Below the pieces are notes generated by a model. The model saw only the letters and a program-made list of their open reading frames with translations, did no database searches and was not told where the DNA came from. Positions 14,701-24,281 of a stretch of DNA of 64,000 bases are shown here, one piece after another (the first letter of the stretch is position 1; each line of letters begins with the position of its first letter). The position numbers were made by a program, and so were the translations under genes. Source of the stretch: Lentisphaeria bacterium (GTDB taxonomy: Bacteria > Verrucomicrobiota > Lentisphaeria > Victivallales > Victivallaceae); NCBI GenBank assembly GCA_018265615.1, contig JABLYX010000019.1:13165-77164 (forward strand), read 5' to 3'.

Positions 14701-14865
14701 TTCGGAACGATTCCCATTGACATAAACATGCTTTCGGTGTAATTTACACTGCTTTGCAGATAAATTCAAAAGATCCGCCGGATTTATCGCAGGAAAGAGG
14801 AGTCATATATCGTGCCCGCCTCCGGAAACGAGGCGCCGCCGGTTTATTAATTGCAGAAAAAAATT

Positions 14866-16518
14866 ATGAAAATCGCAGAAATTCAGGAATTCGACCATCT
14901 GGTGATCGGCAGCGGCCTGGCCGGCTTGTCGAGCGCGCTGCACCTGGCGGAGTCGGGCCGCAGCGTGGCGGTCGTGACCAAGCGGGAAATTTACGAGTGC
15001 AACAGCCGGCTCGCCCAGGGCGGCGTCGCCTGTGTGATGGACAGCCTCGACACATTCGAAGAGCATGTCAAGGACACGCTCGAAGCCGGAGCGGGGCTCT
15101 GCGACGCCGGAGCGGTCCGCGCGATCGTCGAGGCCGGTCCGGAGGCGATCCGCGAGCTCATCGACCTCGGCGCGAAGTTCACGACCCGCGGCGACCTCGG
15201 CTACACCGAGGAGCCGGAGGAGTACGACCTCGGGCGCGAGGGCGGCCACCACAAACGCCGCATCCTGCACGCCGGGGACATCACCGGCGCGGAGCTCGAG
15301 CGCGTGATGATTGAGGCGGTCCGCTCGAAGCCGAACATCACGGTCTTCGAGTTCCATGTCGCAGTCGACCTCGTGGTCAGCTCGCGCCTGAGCCTCGGCG
15401 GGACGAACCGCTGCTTCGGCGCATATGTGCTCGACGAGAAGAGCGGGAACATCGTGACGATCCTTTCAGCCTCCACCACGATCGCGTGCGGCGGTGCAGG
15501 CAAGGTCTATCTGTACACGAGCAATCCGGACGTCGCGTGCGGCTCCGGCGTGGCGATGGCCTACCGGGCCGGGGCGAAGATCGCGAACATGGAGTTCATC
15601 CAGTTCCACCCCACGATCCTCTATCACCCGACGATCCGCTCGTTCCTCATCAGCGAAGCGCTGCGCGGCGAAGGAGCCGTGCTGAAGTGCCGCGAGTCCC
15701 GCAATGCCGAGCCGGTCGAATTCATGCAGAAGTACCACCCGATGAAGAGCCTTGCGCCGCGCGACGTCGTGGCGCGCGCGATCGACTCGGAGATGAAGCG
15801 CACCGGCGAAGAGTGCGTCTACCTCGATATCCGCCACCACGATGAAGAGACGCTGCGCCGTCGCTTTCCGAACATCTTCGCGAAGTGCCTCGAAGCGGAA
15901 ATCAACATGGCGAAGGACCTGATTCCGGTGGTCCCGGCCGCGCATTTCGTCTGCGGCGGCATCAAAACCGATGTGAACGGCGAGTCGAGCATCCAGGGGC
16001 TCTACGCAGTCGGGGAGTCCGGCTGCACAGGGCTGCACGGGGCGAACCGCCTCGCGAGCAACAGTTTGCTCGAGGCGCTCGTGGTTTCGAAATTTTCCGC
16101 GCGGGAGATCGACCGCAAGTACCCGATGTTTCTGGCGGGCCGGCCGCCGGCCGAAACAGCGCTGAACTGGACGACCGGGAACGCGATCGATTCCGACGAA
16201 CAGGTGGTCATCACCCACAACTGGGATGAGATCCGCCGTTTCATGTGGGATTACGTCGGCATCTACCGCACAAACAAGCGCCTCGAACGCGCGAAAAACC
16301 GTATTAAGATGATCCGCAAGGAGATCGAGAAATACTACTGGGATTTCCTGGTCACCGCCGAGCTTGTTGAATTGCGCAACATCGCGACGGTCGCGGAGCT
16401 CATCATCGATTGTTCGCTCCTGCGGCACGAGAGCCGCGGGCTACACTATAACGCCGATTATCCATACAAAGACCCCGAACTCGAATGTGTGGATACGGTC
16501 ATTCAACGGAAACTGTGA
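14866..16518 (+). CDS. nadB: L-aspartate oxidase
   Basis: FAD-binding GSGLAGL motif, fumarate reductase/succinate dehydrogenase flavoprotein family signatures (RLAQGGVA, HPT, GGI, GLYAVGE...GANRLASNSLLE). Confidence 0.9.
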   Translation: MKIAEIQEFDHLVIGSGLAGLSSALHLAESGRSVAVVTKREIYECNSRLAQGGVACVMDSLDTFEEHVKDTLEAGAGLCDAGAVRAIVEAGPEAIRELIDLGAKFTTRGDLGYTEEPEEYDLGREGGHHKRRILHAGDITGAELERVMIEAVRSKPNITVFEFHVAVDLVVSSRLSLGGTNRCFGAYVLDEKSGNIVTILSASTTIACGGAGKVYLYTSNPDVACGSGVAMAYRAGAKIANMEFIQFHPTILYHPTIRSFLISEALRGEGAVLKCRESRNAEPVEFMQKYHPMKSLAPRDVVARAIDSEMKRTGEECVYLDIRHHDEETLRRRFPNIFAKCLEAEINMAKDLIPVVPAAHFVCGGIKTDVNGESSIQGLYAVGESGCTGLHGANRLASNSLLEALVVSKFSAREIDRKYPMFLAGRPPAETALNWTTGNAIDSDEQVVITHNWDEIRRFMWDYVGIYRTNKRLERAKNRIKMIRKEIEKYYWDFLVTAELVELRNIATVAELIIDCSLLRHESRGLHYNADYPYKDPELECVDTVIQRKL

Positions 16519-16527
16519 TCTTCAACC

Positions 16528-17787
16528 ATGAAACATGAACTGCCGGTGCCCCGCCACGTCGTCGAGCTGATTTCGGAACTGCAGGAGGCGGGCTATGAAT
16601 CGTACATCGTCGGCGGAGCGATCCGCGACCTGCTGCTGGGGCGGGCCCCCAAGGACTTCGACATTTCAACCTCGGCCACGCCGGAAGAGGTGCGCACCGT
16701 CTTCGGCCGCCGTTCGGCCAGGATCATCGGGAAGCGGTTCCGGCTGGTCCATGTGACCTGGAGCGGCGAGCTCTTCGAGGTGAGCACGTTCCGGCAGGCG
16801 CCGGTACACAACGGAGCGAACGCGAAAAAGGACGTGCCGGAGAATCTGATCCTCTCGGACAACTCGTTCGGTACGGCCGAAGAGGATGCGTGGCGGCGTG
16901 ACTTCACGGTCAACGCGCTCTTCTTCGACCCGGTCAGGAGTGAACTCATCGACTTCACGGGCAAGGGGGTCGAGGATATCCGGAACCGGGTGGTCCGCGC
17001 GATCGGGGACCCCGGGATCCGCTTCGAAGAGGATCCCGTGCGCATGCTGCGCGCGCTGAAGCTCATCGGGCAATATGACTTCACAATGGAGTCGGCGACG
17101 GAAAACGCGCTCTTCGCGCACCTCGAACTGATCCGGGTCGCCGCCACGTCGCGCCTCGCGCTCGAACTGGAGAAGATCCTCGCAAGCGCCTACGGCGACA
17201 AGCATCTTCAGGCGTTCCACGACTACGGGCTGCTGCCGTTCTTCCTGCCGGAGCTGAACGCCGCGTGGGATACGCCGCACGGCGACTACGCGCTGAATCT
17301 GCTGAACGAGCGCAACTGCCGGGTGCGGGAAGGCATCTACCGCAACAGCATCTCTCTGGCGATGGCGGCGCTGGCGCTGCCGTTCGTCGAGAAGGAGTGC
17401 GAACATAATCCCGGCGAGCTGTGGGCGCCGGGGCCGGATTCCACGGCCGCGATCCGCGGGGTGCTGGGCCGGCTCTTCAAACCCCAGACGATGATGAACC
17501 GCATGACGCTTTCGGCGGAGCGGGTGCTGATTCTGCAGCCGCTGTTCCGCGACGAAAAGGCGAAGCCGAAGCTGATCGAAACAAAATCATATCCGCACAG
17601 CCGCGAGCTCCTGCTGATCCGCACCGCTGTCTCGGAGGAAGAGACGGCGGCCGTCGAACAACTGTGGCCGCCTGCGCCGCGCCGCCGTTCCGCTTCGATG
17701 CGAAGCGAAGAGAGCGAGCGCCCCCCGAAACGCCGCAGGCGCAGCGGCCGTTCGCGCCGGGGGAAGGAAAAGGAGAAGGAGGCGTAA
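16528..17787 (+). CDS. Poly(A) polymerase / tRNA nucleotidyltransferase-family protein (PcnB-like) with an Arg/Lys-rich C-terminal tail
   Basis: PolyA_pol head domain (GGAIRDLLLG...DFDIST), RNA-binding region, basic C-terminus (PKRRRRSGRSRRGKEKEKEA). Confidence 0.75.
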   Translation: MKHELPVPRHVVELISELQEAGYESYIVGGAIRDLLLGRAPKDFDISTSATPEEVRTVFGRRSARIIGKRFRLVHVTWSGELFEVSTFRQAPVHNGANAKKDVPENLILSDNSFGTAEEDAWRRDFTVNALFFDPVRSELIDFTGKGVEDIRNRVVRAIGDPGIRFEEDPVRMLRALKLIGQYDFTMESATENALFAHLELIRVAATSRLALELEKILASAYGDKHLQAFHDYGLLPFFLPELNAAWDTPHGDYALNLLNERNCRVREGIYRNSISLAMAALALPFVEKECEHNPGELWAPGPDSTAAIRGVLGRLFKPQTMMNRMTLSAERVLILQPLFRDEKAKPKLIETKSYPHSRELLLIRTAVSEEETAAVEQLWPPAPRRRSASMRSEESERPPKRRRRSGRSRRGKEKEKEA

Positions 17788-17791
17788 CGGA

Positions 17792-19141
17792 ATGACGGTT
17801 CCGGGAATGAGGTTCTTCCGCCTCCTGCCGCTTCTGTTGGCGGGCTGCTGTGCATTCGGAGCGGGGGAAAGTGTCCTCACGCACCCCGTGACGGGCAAGC
17901 CGGTCGCCTATGGCGGAAAATTCTCAAACGCGAAAGTGACCGTTCCGGACGCCTACCGGCCCAGGGCGCGTGAGATGCGCGGCGTCTGGGTCGCGACCGT
18001 CGAGAACATCGACTTCCCGGCGCACAACAGCGCCGCCGCGTTCCAGCGCGATTACATCACGGTCGTGAACAACCTGAAAAAAACGAACTTCAACACGATC
18101 CTCTTCCAGGTACGGCCGATGAACGACGCGTTCTACCCGTCGAAACTGAACCCCTGGTCCCGCTGGATGACGGGGACGGAGGGGAAGTCACTCGGGGGCT
18201 TCGACCCGCTCGCATTCATGGTCTCCGAAACGCATAAGCGCGGCCTCGAATTCCATGCGTGGCTGAATCCGTACCGGATCGTCTCTTCCACAAAGCTGCG
18301 CAAGGCGGCTTACCTGAAAACGCTCGACGACAGGAATTTCGCGAAACGCAATCCGCATCTCGTGCTCGAGGTCAGGCGGAAAGACGGCACCTACTCGCTG
18401 CTGCTGAACCCCGGCGAACCGCGCGTCGTGCGCCACATCCTTGCAACGGTGCAGGAAATCGTGCAGAACTATCCGGTCGATGCGATCCACTTCGACGACT
18501 ACTTCTACCTTTACGGCGGCGTGGGGGACGCGGACCACAACACGTTCCGGCAGTACAACCCGCGCAAACTCACGCTTGAGGAGTGGCGGCGCGCGAACGT
18601 CGATGCCGTGATCCGCGGCGTGAAGCAGGAGCTGACCGCGCACAATCGCCGGACCGGGCGTAAGGTCGCATTCGGCGTGAGTCCCTTCGGCATCTGGGCG
18701 AACCGGAAAAGTATGTCGGCGGGATCACTGACGGGAGGGCTCCAATCGTTCTTCGCCCAGTATGCGGATACGCGCGGCTGGGTCAAAAAAGGTTGGGTCG
18801 ACTATATCGTACCGCAGCTCTACTGGCCGTTTTCGATGGACGTCGCCGCGTATGCGGCGCTGGCCGACTGGTGGGCGGAGGTCGTAAGGGGGACGGATGT
18901 GAATCTGTACATCGGCCACGGCGCCTACCGGCTCGGCGCGGACCGGAACTGGCACCGCGGAGAGCTGGCGGACCAGCTCCGGTACAATACGAAGCTGCGC
19001 GAGGTGGACGGCTCGATCCTCTTCTCCTACCGCAACATCTTCACGCCCTCGAACCAGGTCATGAAGGAGGGCACGGGCAGGATCCTGAACGACTACTGGC
19101 GTACGCCGGCGCAGTGCCCGCCCTGCCGGAATGTCCGCTGA
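17792..19141 (+). CDS. Glycoside-hydrolase-like GHL10 family lipoprotein (YddW/UPF0748)
   Basis: Lipoprotein signal with LAGC lipobox; conserved GHL10 TIM-barrel segments (RGVWVATV, NTILFQVRP, HAWLNPYR, IHFDDYFY). Confidence 0.7.
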   Translation: MTVPGMRFFRLLPLLLAGCCAFGAGESVLTHPVTGKPVAYGGKFSNAKVTVPDAYRPRAREMRGVWVATVENIDFPAHNSAAAFQRDYITVVNNLKKTNFNTILFQVRPMNDAFYPSKLNPWSRWMTGTEGKSLGGFDPLAFMVSETHKRGLEFHAWLNPYRIVSSTKLRKAAYLKTLDDRNFAKRNPHLVLEVRRKDGTYSLLLNPGEPRVVRHILATVQEIVQNYPVDAIHFDDYFYLYGGVGDADHNTFRQYNPRKLTLEEWRRANVDAVIRGVKQELTAHNRRTGRKVAFGVSPFGIWANRKSMSAGSLTGGLQSFFAQYADTRGWVKKGWVDYIVPQLYWPFSMDVAAYAALADWWAEVVRGTDVNLYIGHGAYRLGADRNWHRGELADQLRYNTKLREVDGSILFSYRNIFTPSNQVMKEGTGRILNDYWRTPAQCPPCRNVR

Positions 19142-19235
19142 TTCTCTTGAAATTCCGTTTGCGCCGCCGCGGATAGCGGGATATATTATCCGGAACGGTA
19201 TTCAGTCTTGAAGCAACGGAAAGAGGGTCCGGTCC

Positions 19236-20417
19236 ATGAAAGTCGCGGTCGTCTCGAACCCCCGCCATCGCGCCGGGGACATGATCGAATTCCTGCTCCT
19301 GCGGGCAATCCACACGTTCAACAAATTCGTCCCGGCCGACCTGCTGATCGTCGAAGGCGAGCTCGGTGAAACGGAAACCGGATTCCTGTCGGAGCTGTTC
19401 AGGTCGGTGAAGAGCCGCAAGGTTCCGCTGCCGGTCATCTGGCCGGCCCGGGACGGAGGCGGCCCCCTGCCCCCGGCGCCGGAGCGGATCGCCGTCAACG
19501 GAACGGAGGAGGAGCCGGCGGCGCTCGTCGAGCGGATCCGCGCCGCGGCAGGCGGTTTCCCGGAGTTCCGGCGCGCCCCCTTCGAAGCGATACTGGCCGA
19601 GCTCGCCGCCGACGGCTCGATCCGGACCGAACGCTGCGCGATGGCCGTGCCGGAGGTTCCCGGAGTCGGCGACTTCCACGTGCATACCCGCATGGCCTAC
19701 TGCAGCGAAAACATGGACATCCCGAAGGCGCTCGAAATGGCGAAGCTTTCGAATGTCGGGACGGTCGCGTTCACCGAACACTCCGGCCAGCTCTATTTTG
19801 AAGCTCCCGACTACTGGAGCGGCCGCTACGTCTGGCGCACGCGCGGCATGACCGGCGGCTGCCCCGTCATCCGCCGCATGGAGGGATATGAGGAGACGCT
19901 CCGGCAGGGGGCGCGCTCCGGGCGCTTTCTGCACGGCTTCGAGCTCGACGTCGACCGCAACGGCGACGTGGCGCTCGACGGGGCGGACCGCCGTCTCGCG
20001 CAGGTGCGGCTCGGCGCCGTGCATCACATGGCGGAAAAGTACGACCCGCACATCGCCTCCCGGCAATTCCTGTACTGCACGGAGTCGCTGCTGAAATACG
20101 GCGTCCACATTCTCGCGCACCCGTTCCGCATCTTCGCGTGGTCCGGCCTGCCGAAGGCGCCGGAGCTCTTCGAGCCGGTCGCGGAGCTGCTGAGGCGGTA
20201 CGGCGCGGCGGCGGAGATCAACTTCCATCAGAACGACCCCGAGCCGGAATTCTTCGAGCTCTGCCTGAAGAAAGGCGTGAAGCTTTCGCTCGGCAGCGAT
20301 TCGCACAACCTCTACGAGGTCGGATTCTTCCTGCCGCACTTCCGTTTCCTCAAAAAACTCGGAGTCGCGGGGCGGCTCGACGAGGTATTGTTCCAGTTCA
20401 AAGAAAACATAAAATAA
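19236..20417 (+). CDS. PHP-domain metal-dependent phosphoesterase with an N-terminal domain of unknown function
   Basis: DFHVHT...FTEH...HILAHP...SLGSDSH. These are the PHP (polymerase/histidinol-phosphatase) His/Asp metal ligands. Confidence 0.65.
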   Translation: MKVAVVSNPRHRAGDMIEFLLLRAIHTFNKFVPADLLIVEGELGETETGFLSELFRSVKSRKVPLPVIWPARDGGGPLPPAPERIAVNGTEEEPAALVERIRAAAGGFPEFRRAPFEAILAELAADGSIRTERCAMAVPEVPGVGDFHVHTRMAYCSENMDIPKALEMAKLSNVGTVAFTEHSGQLYFEAPDYWSGRYVWRTRGMTGGCPVIRRMEGYEETLRQGARSGRFLHGFELDVDRNGDVALDGADRRLAQVRLGAVHHMAEKYDPHIASRQFLYCTESLLKYGVHILAHPFRIFAWSGLPKAPELFEPVAELLRRYGAAAEINFHQNDPEPEFFELCLKKGVKLSLGSDSHNLYEVGFFLPHFRFLKKLGVAGRLDEVLFQFKENIK

Positions 20418-20423
20418 GGAAGA

Positions 20424-21422
20424 ATGAACATGTTTTATAAACCGGATGAAAGCCGCTATTCGGCCATGAGCTTCCGCCGCTGCGGAAAAAGCGGACTGAA
20501 GCTCCCGGCCGTCTCTCTCGGGCTCTGGCACAACTTCGGCAGCGCCGACGTCTACGACAACGCCCGCGCGATGGCGCAGACCGCCTTCGACCTCGGCATC
20601 ACGCACTTCGACCTCGCGAACAACTACGGGCCGGAACCGGGCTCGGCGGAGATCACCTTCGGCCGCATCCTGAAACAGGACCTCGCGCCGTTCCGCGACG
20701 AGCTCGTGATTTCGAGCAAGGCCGGCTATACGATGTGGCCCGGACCGTACGGCGACTGGGGTTCGCGCAAATACCTCGTCGCAAGCTGCGAACAGAGCTT
20801 GAAGCGCATGAACCTGGAATATGTGGACATCTTCTACCACCACCGCTACGATCCCGAGACCCCGATCGAGGAGTCGATGGGGGCGCTCGACCATCTTGTG
20901 CGCTCCGGCAAGGCGCTCTACGCCGGGATATCGAACTATCCGCCGGAAAAAGCCGCCGAAGCGTTCCGGATCCTGCGCGAGCTCGGCACGCCGTGCGTGC
21001 TGCACCAGATCCCGTACAACATGCTGAACCGCTCGCACGAGCAGCAGGGCTCGTTCCGGCTCCTCGAAAAGGAGGGCGTCGGCGGCATCGTCTTTTCGCC
21101 GCTCGCGCAGGGACTCCTGACGAACCGCTATCTCGAGGGAATTCCGAAGGATTCGCGGGTCATGCGCAACGGGTTCCTCAAGAAGGAGGCGCTGACCCCC
21201 GCCGTGCTTGCGAAGATCGGCAAGCTCAACGCGGTCGCGTCCGGCCGCGGCCAGACACTGGCCGAAATGGCGATCGCCTGGCTGCTGAACCGCCCCGGCG
21301 TAACCTCGGCCCTGATCGGCGCGAGCCGGCCGGAGCAGATCCGCGACGTCGTCGCGGGGCTCGGGAAGCTCGACTTCCCGACGAACGAGCTCGTGCACAT
21401 CGACGCGATCCTCGCGGAGTAG
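20424..21422 (+). CDS. Aldo/keto reductase (L-glyceraldehyde-3-phosphate reductase YghZ/Gpr-like)
   Basis: AKR motifs (GITHFDLANNYG, ISSKAG, NYPPEKAAEAFRIL, IVFSPLAQGLLT). Confidence 0.85.
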   Translation: MNMFYKPDESRYSAMSFRRCGKSGLKLPAVSLGLWHNFGSADVYDNARAMAQTAFDLGITHFDLANNYGPEPGSAEITFGRILKQDLAPFRDELVISSKAGYTMWPGPYGDWGSRKYLVASCEQSLKRMNLEYVDIFYHHRYDPETPIEESMGALDHLVRSGKALYAGISNYPPEKAAEAFRILRELGTPCVLHQIPYNMLNRSHEQQGSFRLLEKEGVGGIVFSPLAQGLLTNRYLEGIPKDSRVMRNGFLKKEALTPAVLAKIGKLNAVASGRGQTLAEMAIAWLLNRPGVTSALIGASRPEQIRDVVAGLGKLDFPTNELVHIDAILAE

Positions 21423-21429
21423 CGTTCTC

Positions 21430-22293
21430 ATGCGCGGCATATTCGCACTCATCCTGTGCCTGCTGCCGGTCATCGCGCAGGCGCTCTCCTGCGCCGTGTG
21501 CGGCCGGGAGATCAAAGGGCAGTACCTGCGCTCCGGCGGCAGGGTCCTCTGCTCCGGGGAGTGCTGGGAGAAGCTCCTGCCGCACTGCTCCCTCTGCGAC
21601 GCGCCGCTGGCCGGACGGTACCTGATGTTCAAATCCGGCGGGGAGAAGCATCTGTACTGCCTGAAGTGCTCGGAGCTGCCGCGCTGCTTCTCCTGCGATC
21701 TGCCGACAGACGGCAGAGCGCTCCCCGACGGCCGCGTCTTCTGCCGCGCCTGTTCGAAGGACGCGGTCACGGATCAGGGGGAAGCTGAAACGCTCTACCG
21801 GCAGGCGGAGGCCGATGCGTTCCGGATCATCGGCTCCTCCGGGTGCGGCCGCACCCGGTTCGTCCTCTGCGACCTCGAAACCCTGAATCACGGGCGCAAA
21901 GTCGAAAAGGGGGAGAAATTCGAGCTCGGGCGCTGCCAGTATGAGTACCGGACCCGGGGCCTCCCCGGCCGCCCCCCGAAAACCGTTTCGGAGAAATGCA
22001 CGGTCTACATCCTCGACTCGCTCCCGAAGGCCCAGTTCATCGAGGTCGCCGCGCACGAGGCCGCGCACGACTGGCTGAACCACCATACAAAGGATGTTCC
22101 CCCGCTCTGGAACGAGGGGTTTGCGGAATATATCGCAAGCCTTGTGAACAAACAACACGGGAACAGCTCACGGAACCTGCGCATGGAGGAGAATGAAGAC
22201 CCCGTCTATGGCGCCGGCTACCGCACGGTCCGCGACTACGCCGAAAAGCACGGCTTTGCCGCCCTGCTCGCCCGGCTGAAAGGGAAGTGGTGA
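21430..22293 (+). CDS. Secreted protein with two LIM-like double zinc fingers fused to a DA1-like HExxH metallopeptidase domain
   Basis: Signal peptide; four C-x2-C...C/H-x2-C units (CAVC...CSGEC, CSLC...CLKC, CFSC...CRAC); C-terminal HEAAHDWL...EGFAEY resembling the DA1-like peptidase HEMMHAWL motif. Confidence 0.55.
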   Translation: MRGIFALILCLLPVIAQALSCAVCGREIKGQYLRSGGRVLCSGECWEKLLPHCSLCDAPLAGRYLMFKSGGEKHLYCLKCSELPRCFSCDLPTDGRALPDGRVFCRACSKDAVTDQGEAETLYRQAEADAFRIIGSSGCGRTRFVLCDLETLNHGRKVEKGEKFELGRCQYEYRTRGLPGRPPKTVSEKCTVYILDSLPKAQFIEVAAHEAAHDWLNHHTKDVPPLWNEGFAEYIASLVNKQHGNSSRNLRMEENEDPVYGAGYRTVRDYAEKHGFAALLARLKGKW

Positions 22294-22359: not shown

Positions 22360-22458
22360 TTACTCTCCGCGTTTCGCGCGCTTCTCGGCGCGCTTTTCCT
22401 TCAGAGTTTTGGCAGGGGCCTTCTTGACATCTTTCTTCACATCGTGACTTTTGCTCAT
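22360..22458 (-). CDS. Small (32-aa) highly basic lysine-rich protein, unknown function
   Basis: Found by manual translation: MSKSHDVKKDVKKAPAKTLKEKRAEKRAKRGE*. A consensus AGGAGG RBS sits 6 nt upstream of the ATG. It is below the ORF-track length cut-off. Confidence 0.45.
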   Translation of the reverse strand: MSKSHDVKKDVKKAPAKTLKEKRAEKRAKRGE

Positions 22459-22512: not shown

Positions 22513-22625
22513 GCAATGTCAAGCGTTCATCGCCTGAAATGCGCCGCAACAGCCGCAAACCGGATGAATATCACATCAACCCTCCCGGCAATGTCGCGTT
22601 CACCGTCAGAAATGCGATGTAACAG
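22513..22625. repeat. Imperfect ~50-bp direct repeat: the 3' end of the antiporter gene is duplicated just downstream of its stop codon
   Basis: ccggcaatgtcaagcgttcatcgcctgaaatgcgccgcaacagccgcaaa versus cccggcaatgtcgcgttcaccgtcagaaatgcgatgtaacagccgtaaa. The second copy encodes the antiporter C-terminus ...FLTVNATLPGGLM*. Confidence 0.45.
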
Positions 22626-23533
22626 CCGTAAAGCAGCAGCAGCAGCGCGCCCTCCCGGCGAACCACCCTTCTGCCGGTCATCATGAACGGCAGCAGCAAA
22701 ACCGTCGAAAACAGCAGGACGCCCCAGTCGACCGCCGAGATTCCGGCGGCGGAAACCGGCCGGATCAGCGGCGCAACGCCCATGATCCCGAGCGTATTGA
22801 ACATGTTCGAACCGACCACGTTGCCGACCGCGATATCCTGCTCCCCGCGGCAGGCGGCGACGATGCTTGTCGCAAGCTCCGGCAGGCTGGTTCCGACCGC
22901 GACGATCGTAAGGCCGATCACAGCTTCGGAGAGACCGGCCATGCGGCCGAGCCCGACCGCGCCGTCCACCATGAGTTTCCCGCCGAGCACCAGCGCGGCG
23001 AGCCCGCCGAGCACAAGGAGGATGCTGAGCCAGAACGGCCGCGCCTTCGTCTGCGTGGCTTCCTCCGGCGGCGGCGCGTTCATGCGCTTCTCCATGCGGA
23101 TGTTCACAAGGAGGTACGCGATGAGCCCGGCGAAGAAAATCCCCCCGGTGATCCGGCTGAAGCCGCCGAGGAGACACCCGGCCGCCGCCATGGCCACGGT
23201 CGCGCCGATCAGGATCGGCATATCGAACCTTATGACCTTGCGGTGCACGGCAAGCGGCGTAATCACCGCCGAAAGGCCGAGAATCAGCGCAATGTTGCAG
23301 ATATTCGAACCGACCACGTTGCCGATGCTGATGTCCCCGGAGCCGGCAAGCGCGGCCTGCACGCTGACCACAAGCTCCGGCGCACTTGTGGCAAACGCGA
23401 CCAGCGTAAGCCCGATGATGAGCGGGGAAACACCGAAGCCGGCCGCGATCGACACGCCGCCCCTGACCAGGAATTCCGCTCCGAAATAGAGCAATACAAC
23501 GCCGGCGGCAAGCAGGAGAATGATGGTAAGCAT
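22571..23533 (-). CDS. Ca2+/cation antiporter (CaCA / YrbG family)
   Basis: Two alpha-repeat regions (GNVVGSNICNIALILG and GNVVGSNMFNTLGIMG), ~10 TM helices. The tracked ORF begins with a non-ATG start 9 codons upstream; the ATG at MLTIILLLAAG is preferred here. Confidence 0.8.
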   Translation of the reverse strand: MLTIILLLAAGVVLLYFGAEFLVRGGVSIAAGFGVSPLIIGLTLVAFATSAPELVVSVQAALAGSGDISIGNVVGSNICNIALILGLSAVITPLAVHRKVIRFDMPILIGATVAMAAAGCLLGGFSRITGGIFFAGLIAYLLVNIRMEKRMNAPPPEEATQTKARPFWLSILLVLGGLAALVLGGKLMVDGAVGLGRMAGLSEAVIGLTIVAVGTSLPELATSIVAACRGEQDIAVGNVVGSNMFNTLGIMGVAPLIRPVSAAGISAVDWGVLLFSTVLLLPFMMTGRRVVRREGALLLLLYGCYIAFLTVNATLPGGLM

Positions 23534-23534
23534 A

Positions 23535-24158
23535 TCAGAACTCCGCCGCGAGCGCCGCAATCTCCGCGCGGGCGGCCGCTTCGTTCTTTGCGAGAAGCTC
23601 TCTGCCGAGGTTCGTCCCCTCGAGCGAAATGAACTCCGCGTCGAGCCCGTTGAATTCCGCCCAGAAGCGGAGATAGGGCCGCAGATGATCGAGCTTCTGC
23701 GCCTCCGGCGTGTCGTAAACGCTCCCTGCCGCGCAGAGAAAGAGCGCCTTTTTCCCGCCGAGCAGCGGAAGATACCCCTTCTCCGGATCGACGCCGAAGC
23801 TCCAGCCCGCCTGCGTGACCCGGTCGATCCACTGCTTCAGGAAACAGGGCATGGAGAAGTTCCACATCGGCGTGCTCAGCACGAGGCGGTCGGCCCTCTT
23901 CAGCTGTTCGAACGAGACGCGCGCGGCGTTCCACTCGCCCGCCTCGGCGCCGTCGAGCGCGATGCCGCGTCCGGACTTGAACTTCGCCGCCGCGCCGGCC
24001 TCCCCGAAGCGCGGCTGCCGGACCGCGCCGATGTCGATCTCCTCGATGGTGTAATCCGGATTCCGTTTCAGGAACGCGGCGATGAACTCTTTCGCGAGCC
24101 GCCGCGAATGCGAACGTTCGAGCCGCGGGGAAACCGCGACATGCAACAGGGTCTTCAT
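23535..24158 (-). CDS. FMN-dependent NAD(P)H azoreductase/quinone reductase (flavodoxin-like fold)
   Basis: MKTLLHVAVSPR...STPMWNFSMP. This is the AzoR/ACP-phosphodiesterase-like family pattern. Start set at the internal ATG with an AGGAGA RBS. Confidence 0.7.
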   Translation of the reverse strand: MKTLLHVAVSPRLERSHSRRLAKEFIAAFLKRNPDYTIEEIDIGAVRQPRFGEAGAAAKFKSGRGIALDGAEAGEWNAARVSFEQLKRADRLVLSTPMWNFSMPCFLKQWIDRVTQAGWSFGVDPEKGYLPLLGGKKALFLCAAGSVYDTPEAQKLDHLRPYLRFWAEFNGLDAEFISLEGTNLGRELLAKNEAAARAEIAALAAEF

Positions 24159-24281
24159 GATTCGATTGCCTCTCCTTGTTGAATGGGAACCAACCAAGTA
24201 TACCACAAATCCGGGAAAATTCAATCGCCGGGGATGGCAATTTCGGAAGATCGAAGTATATTATGCATCACACCGGAGAGC

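Follow-up and report, generated by a model that had tools for sequence, protein, structure and literature searches.

A putatively exported bacterial relative of plant DA1 with LIM-like zinc fingers and a predicted gluzincin peptidase domain in a Lentisphaeria bacterium

Plant DA1 and the DAR proteins form a subfamily of ubiquitin-activated peptidases in which one or more zinc fingers, a LIM-like double finger and a peptidase domain follow each other in a fixed order. The peptidase motif of DA1 has been described as HEMMH-x15-EE, its peptidase activity depends on both the HEMMH motif and Cys274, and the C274Y substitution abolishes the ubiquitylation as well as the activity of DA1 (Dong et al., 2017; PMC5322733). 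The same authors called the LIM-like domain ancient and presented, in their Supplemental Fig. S7, bacterial proteins from Roseiflexus and others that combine LIM-like and peptidase domains; bacterial homologues of the LIM-like/peptidase region of DA1 are credited, by the citation given there, to Burroughs, Iyer and Aravind (2011). Besides this work, the literature found on PF12315 (DUF3633) is concerned with plants only, the bacterial LIM-peptidases are not discussed in the other papers found from the Burroughs/Iyer/Aravind group, and no experimental work on any bacterial member was encountered in the literature searched. The protein analysed here is a divergent member of this already published bacterial family related to DA1, of which the family-wide signal peptide is the only aspect that may have been under-appreciated.

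The window, a stretch of 64,000 nucleotides from a contig of a Victivallis-related Lentisphaeria bacterium, contains an open reading frame of 287 codons plus a stop codon (Table 1), which starts 8 nt after the stop codon of an aldo/keto reductase gene and carries a GGAG sequence 10 nt 5' of its ATG. Its product has homologues with 30-100% identity, and those at 30-68% identity keep both HEAAHDWL and EGFAEY, which identifies the reading frame as a real gene. Antisense open reading frames of 310 and 903 amino acids were rejected as genes, since only the product of the plus strand has homologues, and are artefacts of the high G+C content. The longer of the two (19059-21770, minus strand) lies antisense to a PHP gene, to the aldo/keto reductase gene and to the start of the LIM-peptidase gene, all of which are supported by homology on the plus strand, and would be wrongly retained by a filter based on ORF length. 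The hairpin that follows the stop codon (Table 1) is the probable end of the transcription unit, and a second terminator-like stem, this one with a T-run, is found about 45 nt past it (22376-22393). Both sit between the LIM-peptidase gene and a convergent gene for a Na+/Ca2+ exchanger, the open reading frame of which (22571-23560, minus strand), if read from the first possible start codon, shares 26 nt with the end of the upstream gene for a flavodoxin-like FMN reductase of the azoreductase type (23535-24224, minus strand); the true start of the exchanger gene may be located further downstream. No Rfam families or tRNAs were detected in the window, and no paralogue of the LIM-peptidase was found within it.

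Table 1. Location in the window of the LIM-peptidase gene, of the regions and motifs that it encodes and of the adjoining hairpin
Feature	Position	Strand	Basis
Complete LIM-like/DA1-like peptidase gene	21430..22293	+	ORF list; homologues; DA1-like and LIM as top Pfam matches
Predicted Sec signal peptide, aa 1-18, MRG / IFALILCLLPVIA / AQA, cut after A18	21430..21483	+	Sequence reading
Single treble-clef-type zinc finger, C21-x2-C24-x16-C41-x3-C45	21490..21564	+	Conservation; BLASTP to DA1; pLDDT ~96
LIM-like double zinc finger, aa 53-108	21586..21753	+	Pfam LIM; conservation; DA1 alignments; Foldseek
DA1-like gluzincin peptidase domain, aa 111-287	21760..22290	+	
HEAAH zinc-binding/catalytic motif (H209, E210, H213)	22054..22068	+	Invariant in 50/50; aligned to HEMMH of DA1
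E229-G230, predicted third zinc ligand, next helix	22114..22119	+	Invariant in 50/50; aligned to the EEG that is invariant in plant DA1
DPVYGAGYR motif with Y260	22198..22224	+	Conservation; aligned to SPVYGDGFR of DA1
17-bp perfect hairpin, without U-tract, right after the stop codon	22297..22333	+	Fold dG -37.9 kcal/mol, z -8.3

The DA1-like and LIM assignments of the original prediction are supported by Pfam, in which these two models are the top matches of the window protein, each just under its gathering score. The DA1-like model (PF12315) reaches 24.5 of the 25 bits required (E = 2e-5) and the LIM model (PF00412) 22.0 of 22.9 bits (E = 1.9e-4), the latter over residues 53-110 and positions 1-55 of the 58 in the profile. 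Across 50 aligned family members, DA1-like is found in 38 at E<=1e-3 (best E = 6.3e-21) and LIM in 30 (best E = 1.2e-34). PF12315 is also part of the precomputed database annotation of an identical protein (P0001), and no NCBIfam model matched the window protein at E<=10.

A stretch of Arabidopsis DA1 served only as bait and retrieved plant DA1 proteins, among them an entry labelled 'DA1 protein [Arabidopsis thaliana]' (P0203), 100% identical to the bait. Fifteen of these plant proteins were aligned (A3), and hhalign matched them to the alignment of the bacterial family (A2) with a probability of 99.94% and E = 1.9e-36 over 297 columns; the match spans the LIM, LIM-like and peptidase regions up to the C-terminus. 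At the level of single sequences, BLASTP aligned residues 21-216 of the window protein collinearly with residues 199-425 of Arabidopsis DA1 (25% identity, E = 3e-8). In this alignment C21/C24 correspond to C199/C202, in the second finger of the canonical LIM domain, C53/C56 to C232/C235 and C86/C89 to C271/C274; PDGRVFCRACSKDAVTD of the window protein is aligned with NDGRKLCLECLDSAVMD of DA1, and HEAAHDWL with HEMMHAWM, in agreement with the earlier claim that the peptidase site mirrors that of plant DA1. In the hhalign comparison, further towards the C-terminus, Y260 corresponds to Y501, which is invariant in plant DA1, and DPVYGAGYR to the plant-invariant SPVYGDGFR. The family-invariant G167 is aligned by hhalign with DA1 G359, next to R358, the residue given for da1-1 (PMC5785342). 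An HMM built narrowly from angiosperm DA1 proteins did not match the window protein significantly (11.7 bits), so that it is the Pfam model, the BLASTP alignment and the hhalign comparison that carry the link to DA1. Ranked against the plant DA1 profile, the window protein takes position 152 among 202 bacterial members. Judged by these alignments, it is a true but distant relative of plant DA1, and is among the bacterial members that by sequence are least like it.

LIM domains conform to the pattern C-x2-C-x16-23-(H/C)-x2-C-x2-C-x2-C-x16-21-C-x2-(C/H/D), in which eight ligands make up two zinc sites. The 12 Cys residues of the finger region of the window protein are arranged in six knuckles that would form three Cys4 sites: the first, given in Table 1, ends in an FCS-like C-x3-C knuckle (LCSGEC), the second reads C53-x2-C56-x20-C77-x2-C80 and the third C86-x2-C89-x15-C105-x2-C108. 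The eight Cys residues between positions 53 and 108 fit the LIM pattern in their intra-finger spacings (x20 and x15), but the spacer between the two fingers has 5 residues instead of the canonical 2. The original prediction of four units forming two LIM-like double fingers thus has to be revised to three Cys4 sites, which is also the number that it listed itself. H74, within HLYCLKC, was considered as a zinc ligand and discarded, since it is not conserved across the family. In the 50 aligned members C21, C24, C86, C89 and C105 are invariant, C53, C56 and C108 nearly so, and position 41 is either His or Cys. Positions 41/45 and 77/80 divide the family into an all-Cys type, represented by 20 of the 50 members including the window protein and displaying the FCS-like 'CSxxC' knuckle, and a type that contains His and shows canonical LIM knuckles (YHxxC). 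Finger modules differ in number across the family, and many bacterial relatives have four or more zinc sites. Four more Cys residues of the window protein, at positions 139, 147, 169 and 190, are located in the peptidase domain.

An AlphaFold2 model computed from the 50-sequence alignment has a mean pLDDT of 94.1 and a pTM of 0.86; pLDDT drops under 70 in the signal peptide only. Residues 21-110 (pLDDT ~96) adopt a double treble-clef fold in the model, and for the N-terminal ~95 residues a Foldseek search of the PDB placed tandem LIM structures at the top, namely PINCH1 LIM4-5, Lhx4, Lhx3, LMO2/4 and Isl1, with E = 6.4e-4 and probabilities of up to 0.99. The predicted structure is therefore compatible with treble-clef fingers, as originally proposed, and the Cys spacing does not speak against them. 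When PDB sequences were searched with the family profile, LIM domains were matched (paxillin, E = 1.9e-13) and the HExxH-E region of M1 aminopeptidases was matched weakly (~3e-3), while the single sequence of the window protein gave only weak LIM matches (E >= 0.06) and no peptidase; neither Foldseek nor the family profile found a solved DA1-like structure in the PDB. Aminopeptidase N and collagenases were also named in connection with the AlphaFold2 model. The high pTM by itself suggests that in the model the fingers sit on the catalytic domain in one fixed orientation.

The N-terminus of the window protein, MRGIFALILCLLPVIAQA followed by LS, has on reading the n/h/c layout of a Sec signal with small residues at -3 and -1, which agrees with the signal peptide of the original prediction. 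R2 is placed in the n-region, and the h-region (I4-A16) comprises 13 residues, including a proline, and is followed by an A-Q-A site; at this length it is too short for a membrane helix. A lipoprotein signal was rejected because L-I-L-C10 has Leu at -1 and no lipobox, and a Tat signal because the segment contains just one Arg and lacks RRxFL. The best reading of this segment is a Sec signal peptide with predicted cleavage after A18. The feature is widespread in the family: a hydrophobic, uncharged run precedes the first CxxC in 163 of the 177 full-length representatives with HExxH (~92%), and the mean net charge around the run is +1.8 before and +0.6 after it.

If the hydrophobic N-terminus remained uncleaved, the same enzyme would be a membrane-tethered peptidase facing the periplasm, different in location only. 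The presence of this segment throughout the family, the positive charge on its N-terminal side and the fact that an obvious small-x-small site is seen in only 138 of the 163 representatives possessing it are all consistent with such an anchor, but in the window protein an h-region of just 13 residues, containing a proline and followed by a textbook A-Q-A, favours cleavage, and tethering is considered unlikely here. A location in the reducing cytoplasm, as for plant DA1, with the hydrophobic N-terminus acting as an N-out anchor or having no relevance, would suit zinc fingers of the Cys4 and Cys/His types, which are typical of cytoplasmic proteins. It would also agree with P0050, P0055 and P0194, which begin with the LIM domain without a hydrophobic N-terminus and are most like plant DA1. 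On the other hand, R2 ahead of the h-region, the neutral or acidic residues after it and the shortness of the h-region itself resemble a Sec signal, a signal-like segment is shared by ~92% of the representatives, and there is no downstream in-frame start that would retain the fingers, the next Met being M66; a cytoplasmic window protein is accordingly improbable. Export by the Sec pathway with cleavage remains the preferred reading for this protein. The signal-less members, which also include P0058, have a canonical LIM domain at their very N-terminus and score best with the plant DA1 profile, reaching 149 bits, far above the exported majority; if a bacterial lineage is to be named as nearest to eukaryotic DA1, they are the better candidates.

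Exported cysteines tend towards oxidation, and for this reason Cys4 zinc sites are unusual outside the cytoplasm. The replacement of all His ligands by Cys in the Victivallales clade, resulting in three Cys4 sites next to four Cys in the catalytic domain, could be an adaptation of the fingers to the exported state. If the window protein and its bacterial relatives are indeed exported, they would represent a rare case of LIM-type zinc fingers at work outside the cytoplasm.

In the peptidase domain, HEAAHDWL (H209-L216) and EGFAEY (E229-Y234) are both present as originally described, but they are separated by 12 residues and not by 22. The motif is thus HExxH-x15-E, running from H209-E-A-A-H213 through 15 residues to E229-G230, with the same spacing as in DA1. 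A thermolysin-like catalytic fold, in which one helix bears HExxH and the following helix the Glu ligand, places the domain among the gluzincins of clan MA(E). G167, H209, E210, H213, E229, G230 and Y260 are invariant in the 50 members, and within DPVYGAGYR G263 is conserved in 44 and R265 in 42 of them. M1 enzymes possess a catalytic Tyr that stabilizes the transition state, and by analogy we infer this function for Y260.

Taken as a whole, the gene is likely to encode a Sec-exported bacterial LIM-peptidase of the DA1-like type, with three Cys4 sites and a gluzincin domain, that functions as a zinc endopeptidase. The Sec pathway would export the protein and the signal peptide would be cut off, leaving a mature form of ~269 residues. 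Three structural zinc ions would fold the finger module into a single finger followed by a LIM-like double finger, the latter being the one that directly precedes the catalytic domain in DA1. H209, H213 and E229 would coordinate a fourth, catalytic zinc, E210 would act as the general base in the hydrolysis of peptide bonds, and Y260 would probably stabilize the transition state. Proteins of the envelope or of the extracellular space are the most likely substrates. [quoted passage not shown] They would probably bind an extended stretch of substrate, or else maintain the peptidase in a competent state as in DA1. A catalytically dead protein, serving as a zinc-binding scaffold or binding protein and not as a protease, has precedents in plants, where some family members, namely DAR3 and the integrated domain of DAR4, show no DA1-type activity or function as inhibitors (bioRxiv 10.1101/2022.06.21.497003). 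The intact and invariant H209, E210, H213, E229 and Y260 display instead the pattern of an enzyme selected for activity and make this alternative highly improbable, so that an active zinc endopeptidase is retained as the preferred reading.

Relatives of the window protein numbered 25 in a word-indexed search and 47 in a profile search, many of the latter bearing PF12315 and PF00412 in their precomputed annotation. When 1.84 billion cluster representatives were searched exhaustively with HMMER, 4835 clusters (50% identity) were matched at E<=1e-3, of which 2345 also passed 1e-10 and 677 passed 1e-30; the weaker part of this list probably takes in plain LIM proteins. The 677 clusters found at the strictest threshold contradict the earlier statement that the combination of LIM and peptidase is uncommon in bacteria. 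The phyletic distribution, which had been named as a check, reaches several bacterial phyla, with relatives in Victivallales, Acidobacteriota, Chloroflexota (Ktedonobacteria; L011 and L013), Zixibacteria, TA06, Spirochaetota and one Desulfocucumaceae MAG. Family members range from 285 to more than 400 residues, some having 645-795 residues and five matched stretches, and the clade of the window protein (285-296 residues) is the shortest form found here. The 90% cluster of the window protein contains MBS1370032.1, 'hypothetical protein [Lentisphaeria bacterium]'. The closest match among species-representative genomes is Victivallis vadensis, in which the LIM-peptidase is 42% and the adjacent aldo/keto reductase 78% identical. 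The V. vadensis homologue (L001, 5833-6933) has no Pfam match at E<=1e-3, an indication that members of the clade escape routine domain annotation. Two LIM-peptidase paralogues are found in tandem in the uncultured bacterium RUG12541 (L006, 4863-5660 and 5806-6825). In P0006 and P0012, both from short contigs, part of a LIM-peptidase is joined to a RecA-like N-terminus or to peptidase M29 and lipid A acyltransferase matches; these look like chimeric or frameshifted gene calls and not like true fusions.

Six unrelated-looking genes, separated by short gaps and all on the same strand (14851-22293, plus strand), form a run that ends with the LIM-peptidase gene; ahead of it lie, in this order, genes for a FAD_binding_2/Succ_DH_flav_C oxidoreductase, a PolyA_pol-type nucleotidyltransferase, a GHL10 protein, a PHP protein and the aldo/keto reductase. 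The order of the six genes is kept in a relative with a 68%-identical LIM-peptidase (L018, 1-6858), and only the aldo/keto reductase and LIM-peptidase genes remain adjacent in V. vadensis. Beyond close relatives, no recurrent neighbour was found across 17 loci from other phyla, and the genomic context consequently gives no clue to function. The window has a G+C content of 61%, and the GC3 of the LIM-peptidase gene (0.85) matches that of its neighbour (0.88), so that there is no sign of recent transfer. A recent acquisition from a plant or another eukaryote, which would explain an architecture best known from plants, is hardly conceivable given this match and the gene order conserved in relatives, the large and deep bacterial family (the 4835 and 677 clusters above) with members in Lentisphaerota, Acidobacteriota, Chloroflexota, Zixibacteria, TA06 and Spirochaetota, and the position of the window protein, with its 25% identity to DA1, among the least DA1-like bacterial members.

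The bearing on the origin of DA1 that had been attributed to this protein is small, since the bacterial link has already been published (PMC5322733) and a sequence of such low rank against the plant profile, among the least DA1-like of the bacterial members, adds little to the question; current views are left unchanged. On a broader scale it is possible, if rather doubtful, that bacterial LIM-peptidases of the DA1 type are mainly extracytoplasmic, that their LIM-type arrays, variable in finger number, constitute the substrate-guiding arm of a periplasmic or secreted gluzincin and that the cytoplasmic, ubiquitin-controlled DA1 of plants derives from the rare signal-less forms. In public records the window protein and its relatives bear the label 'hypothetical protein', for which 'DA1-like zinc metallopeptidase' could be substituted. 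Being small, the bacterial relatives might be suitable for structural and biochemical studies of the interplay between LIM-like module and gluzincin core.

In comparison with plant DA1, the window protein has the same collinear order of zinc finger, LIM-like double finger and peptidase. The two have in common the PRC-x2-C knuckle (C86/C89 and C271/C274, respectively), the DGRxxCxxCxxxAVxD motif, the strand that contains G167 (G359 in DA1), HExxH (HEAAH and HEMMH) followed by an invariant E-G, and (D/S)PVYGxG(F/Y)R. The window protein differs in having a signal peptide in place of the N-terminal cytoplasmic region and the ubiquitin-interacting motifs (UIMs) of DA1. Pfam matched no UIM in it and, with the first finger starting at C21 after the signal peptide, there is no space for such motifs; lacking them, the protein is not ubiquitin-activated, and the ubiquitin switch of DA1 would not apply to it. 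It has three zinc sites and not four, the canonical LIM domain being reduced to one half, its finger ligands are all Cys whereas DA1 and many bacterial relatives make use of His, and it lacks the long Ser-rich insert past the Glu helix. Without UIMs and without four zinc sites, it is not a member of the plant DA1/DAR subfamily.

Identity to the gluzincins of the M1, M30 (lugdulysin) and M4 groups is 11-20%, and the window protein is not a member of any of them. The spacing within the zinc-binding motif is x18 in M1 aminopeptidases (ERAP1, LTA4H and aminopeptidase N) and x19 in thermolysin (M4), in contrast to x15 in the window protein. Assignment as an M1 aminopeptidase was rejected on the basis of this spacing, of a missing GxMEN exopeptidase motif and of a Pfam Peptidase_M1 score of 14 bits against 27.7; the flanking M1 domains are also absent. 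With the LIM proteins of eukaryotes (paxillin, PINCH, LMO and LHX) it shares double treble-clef zinc fingers, although its longer inter-finger spacer (5 residues versus 2) sets it apart, its score falls 0.9 bit under the Pfam cut-off for LIM, and its first finger stands alone as half a domain, with C-x3-C as a knuckle. The bacterial LIM-like and peptidase proteins of Roseiflexus and others belong to the same family, with paired CxxC/H knuckles followed by a DA1-type peptidase, within which the window protein represents a short (285-296 residues), all-Cys, Victivallales-specific clade with a signal peptide.
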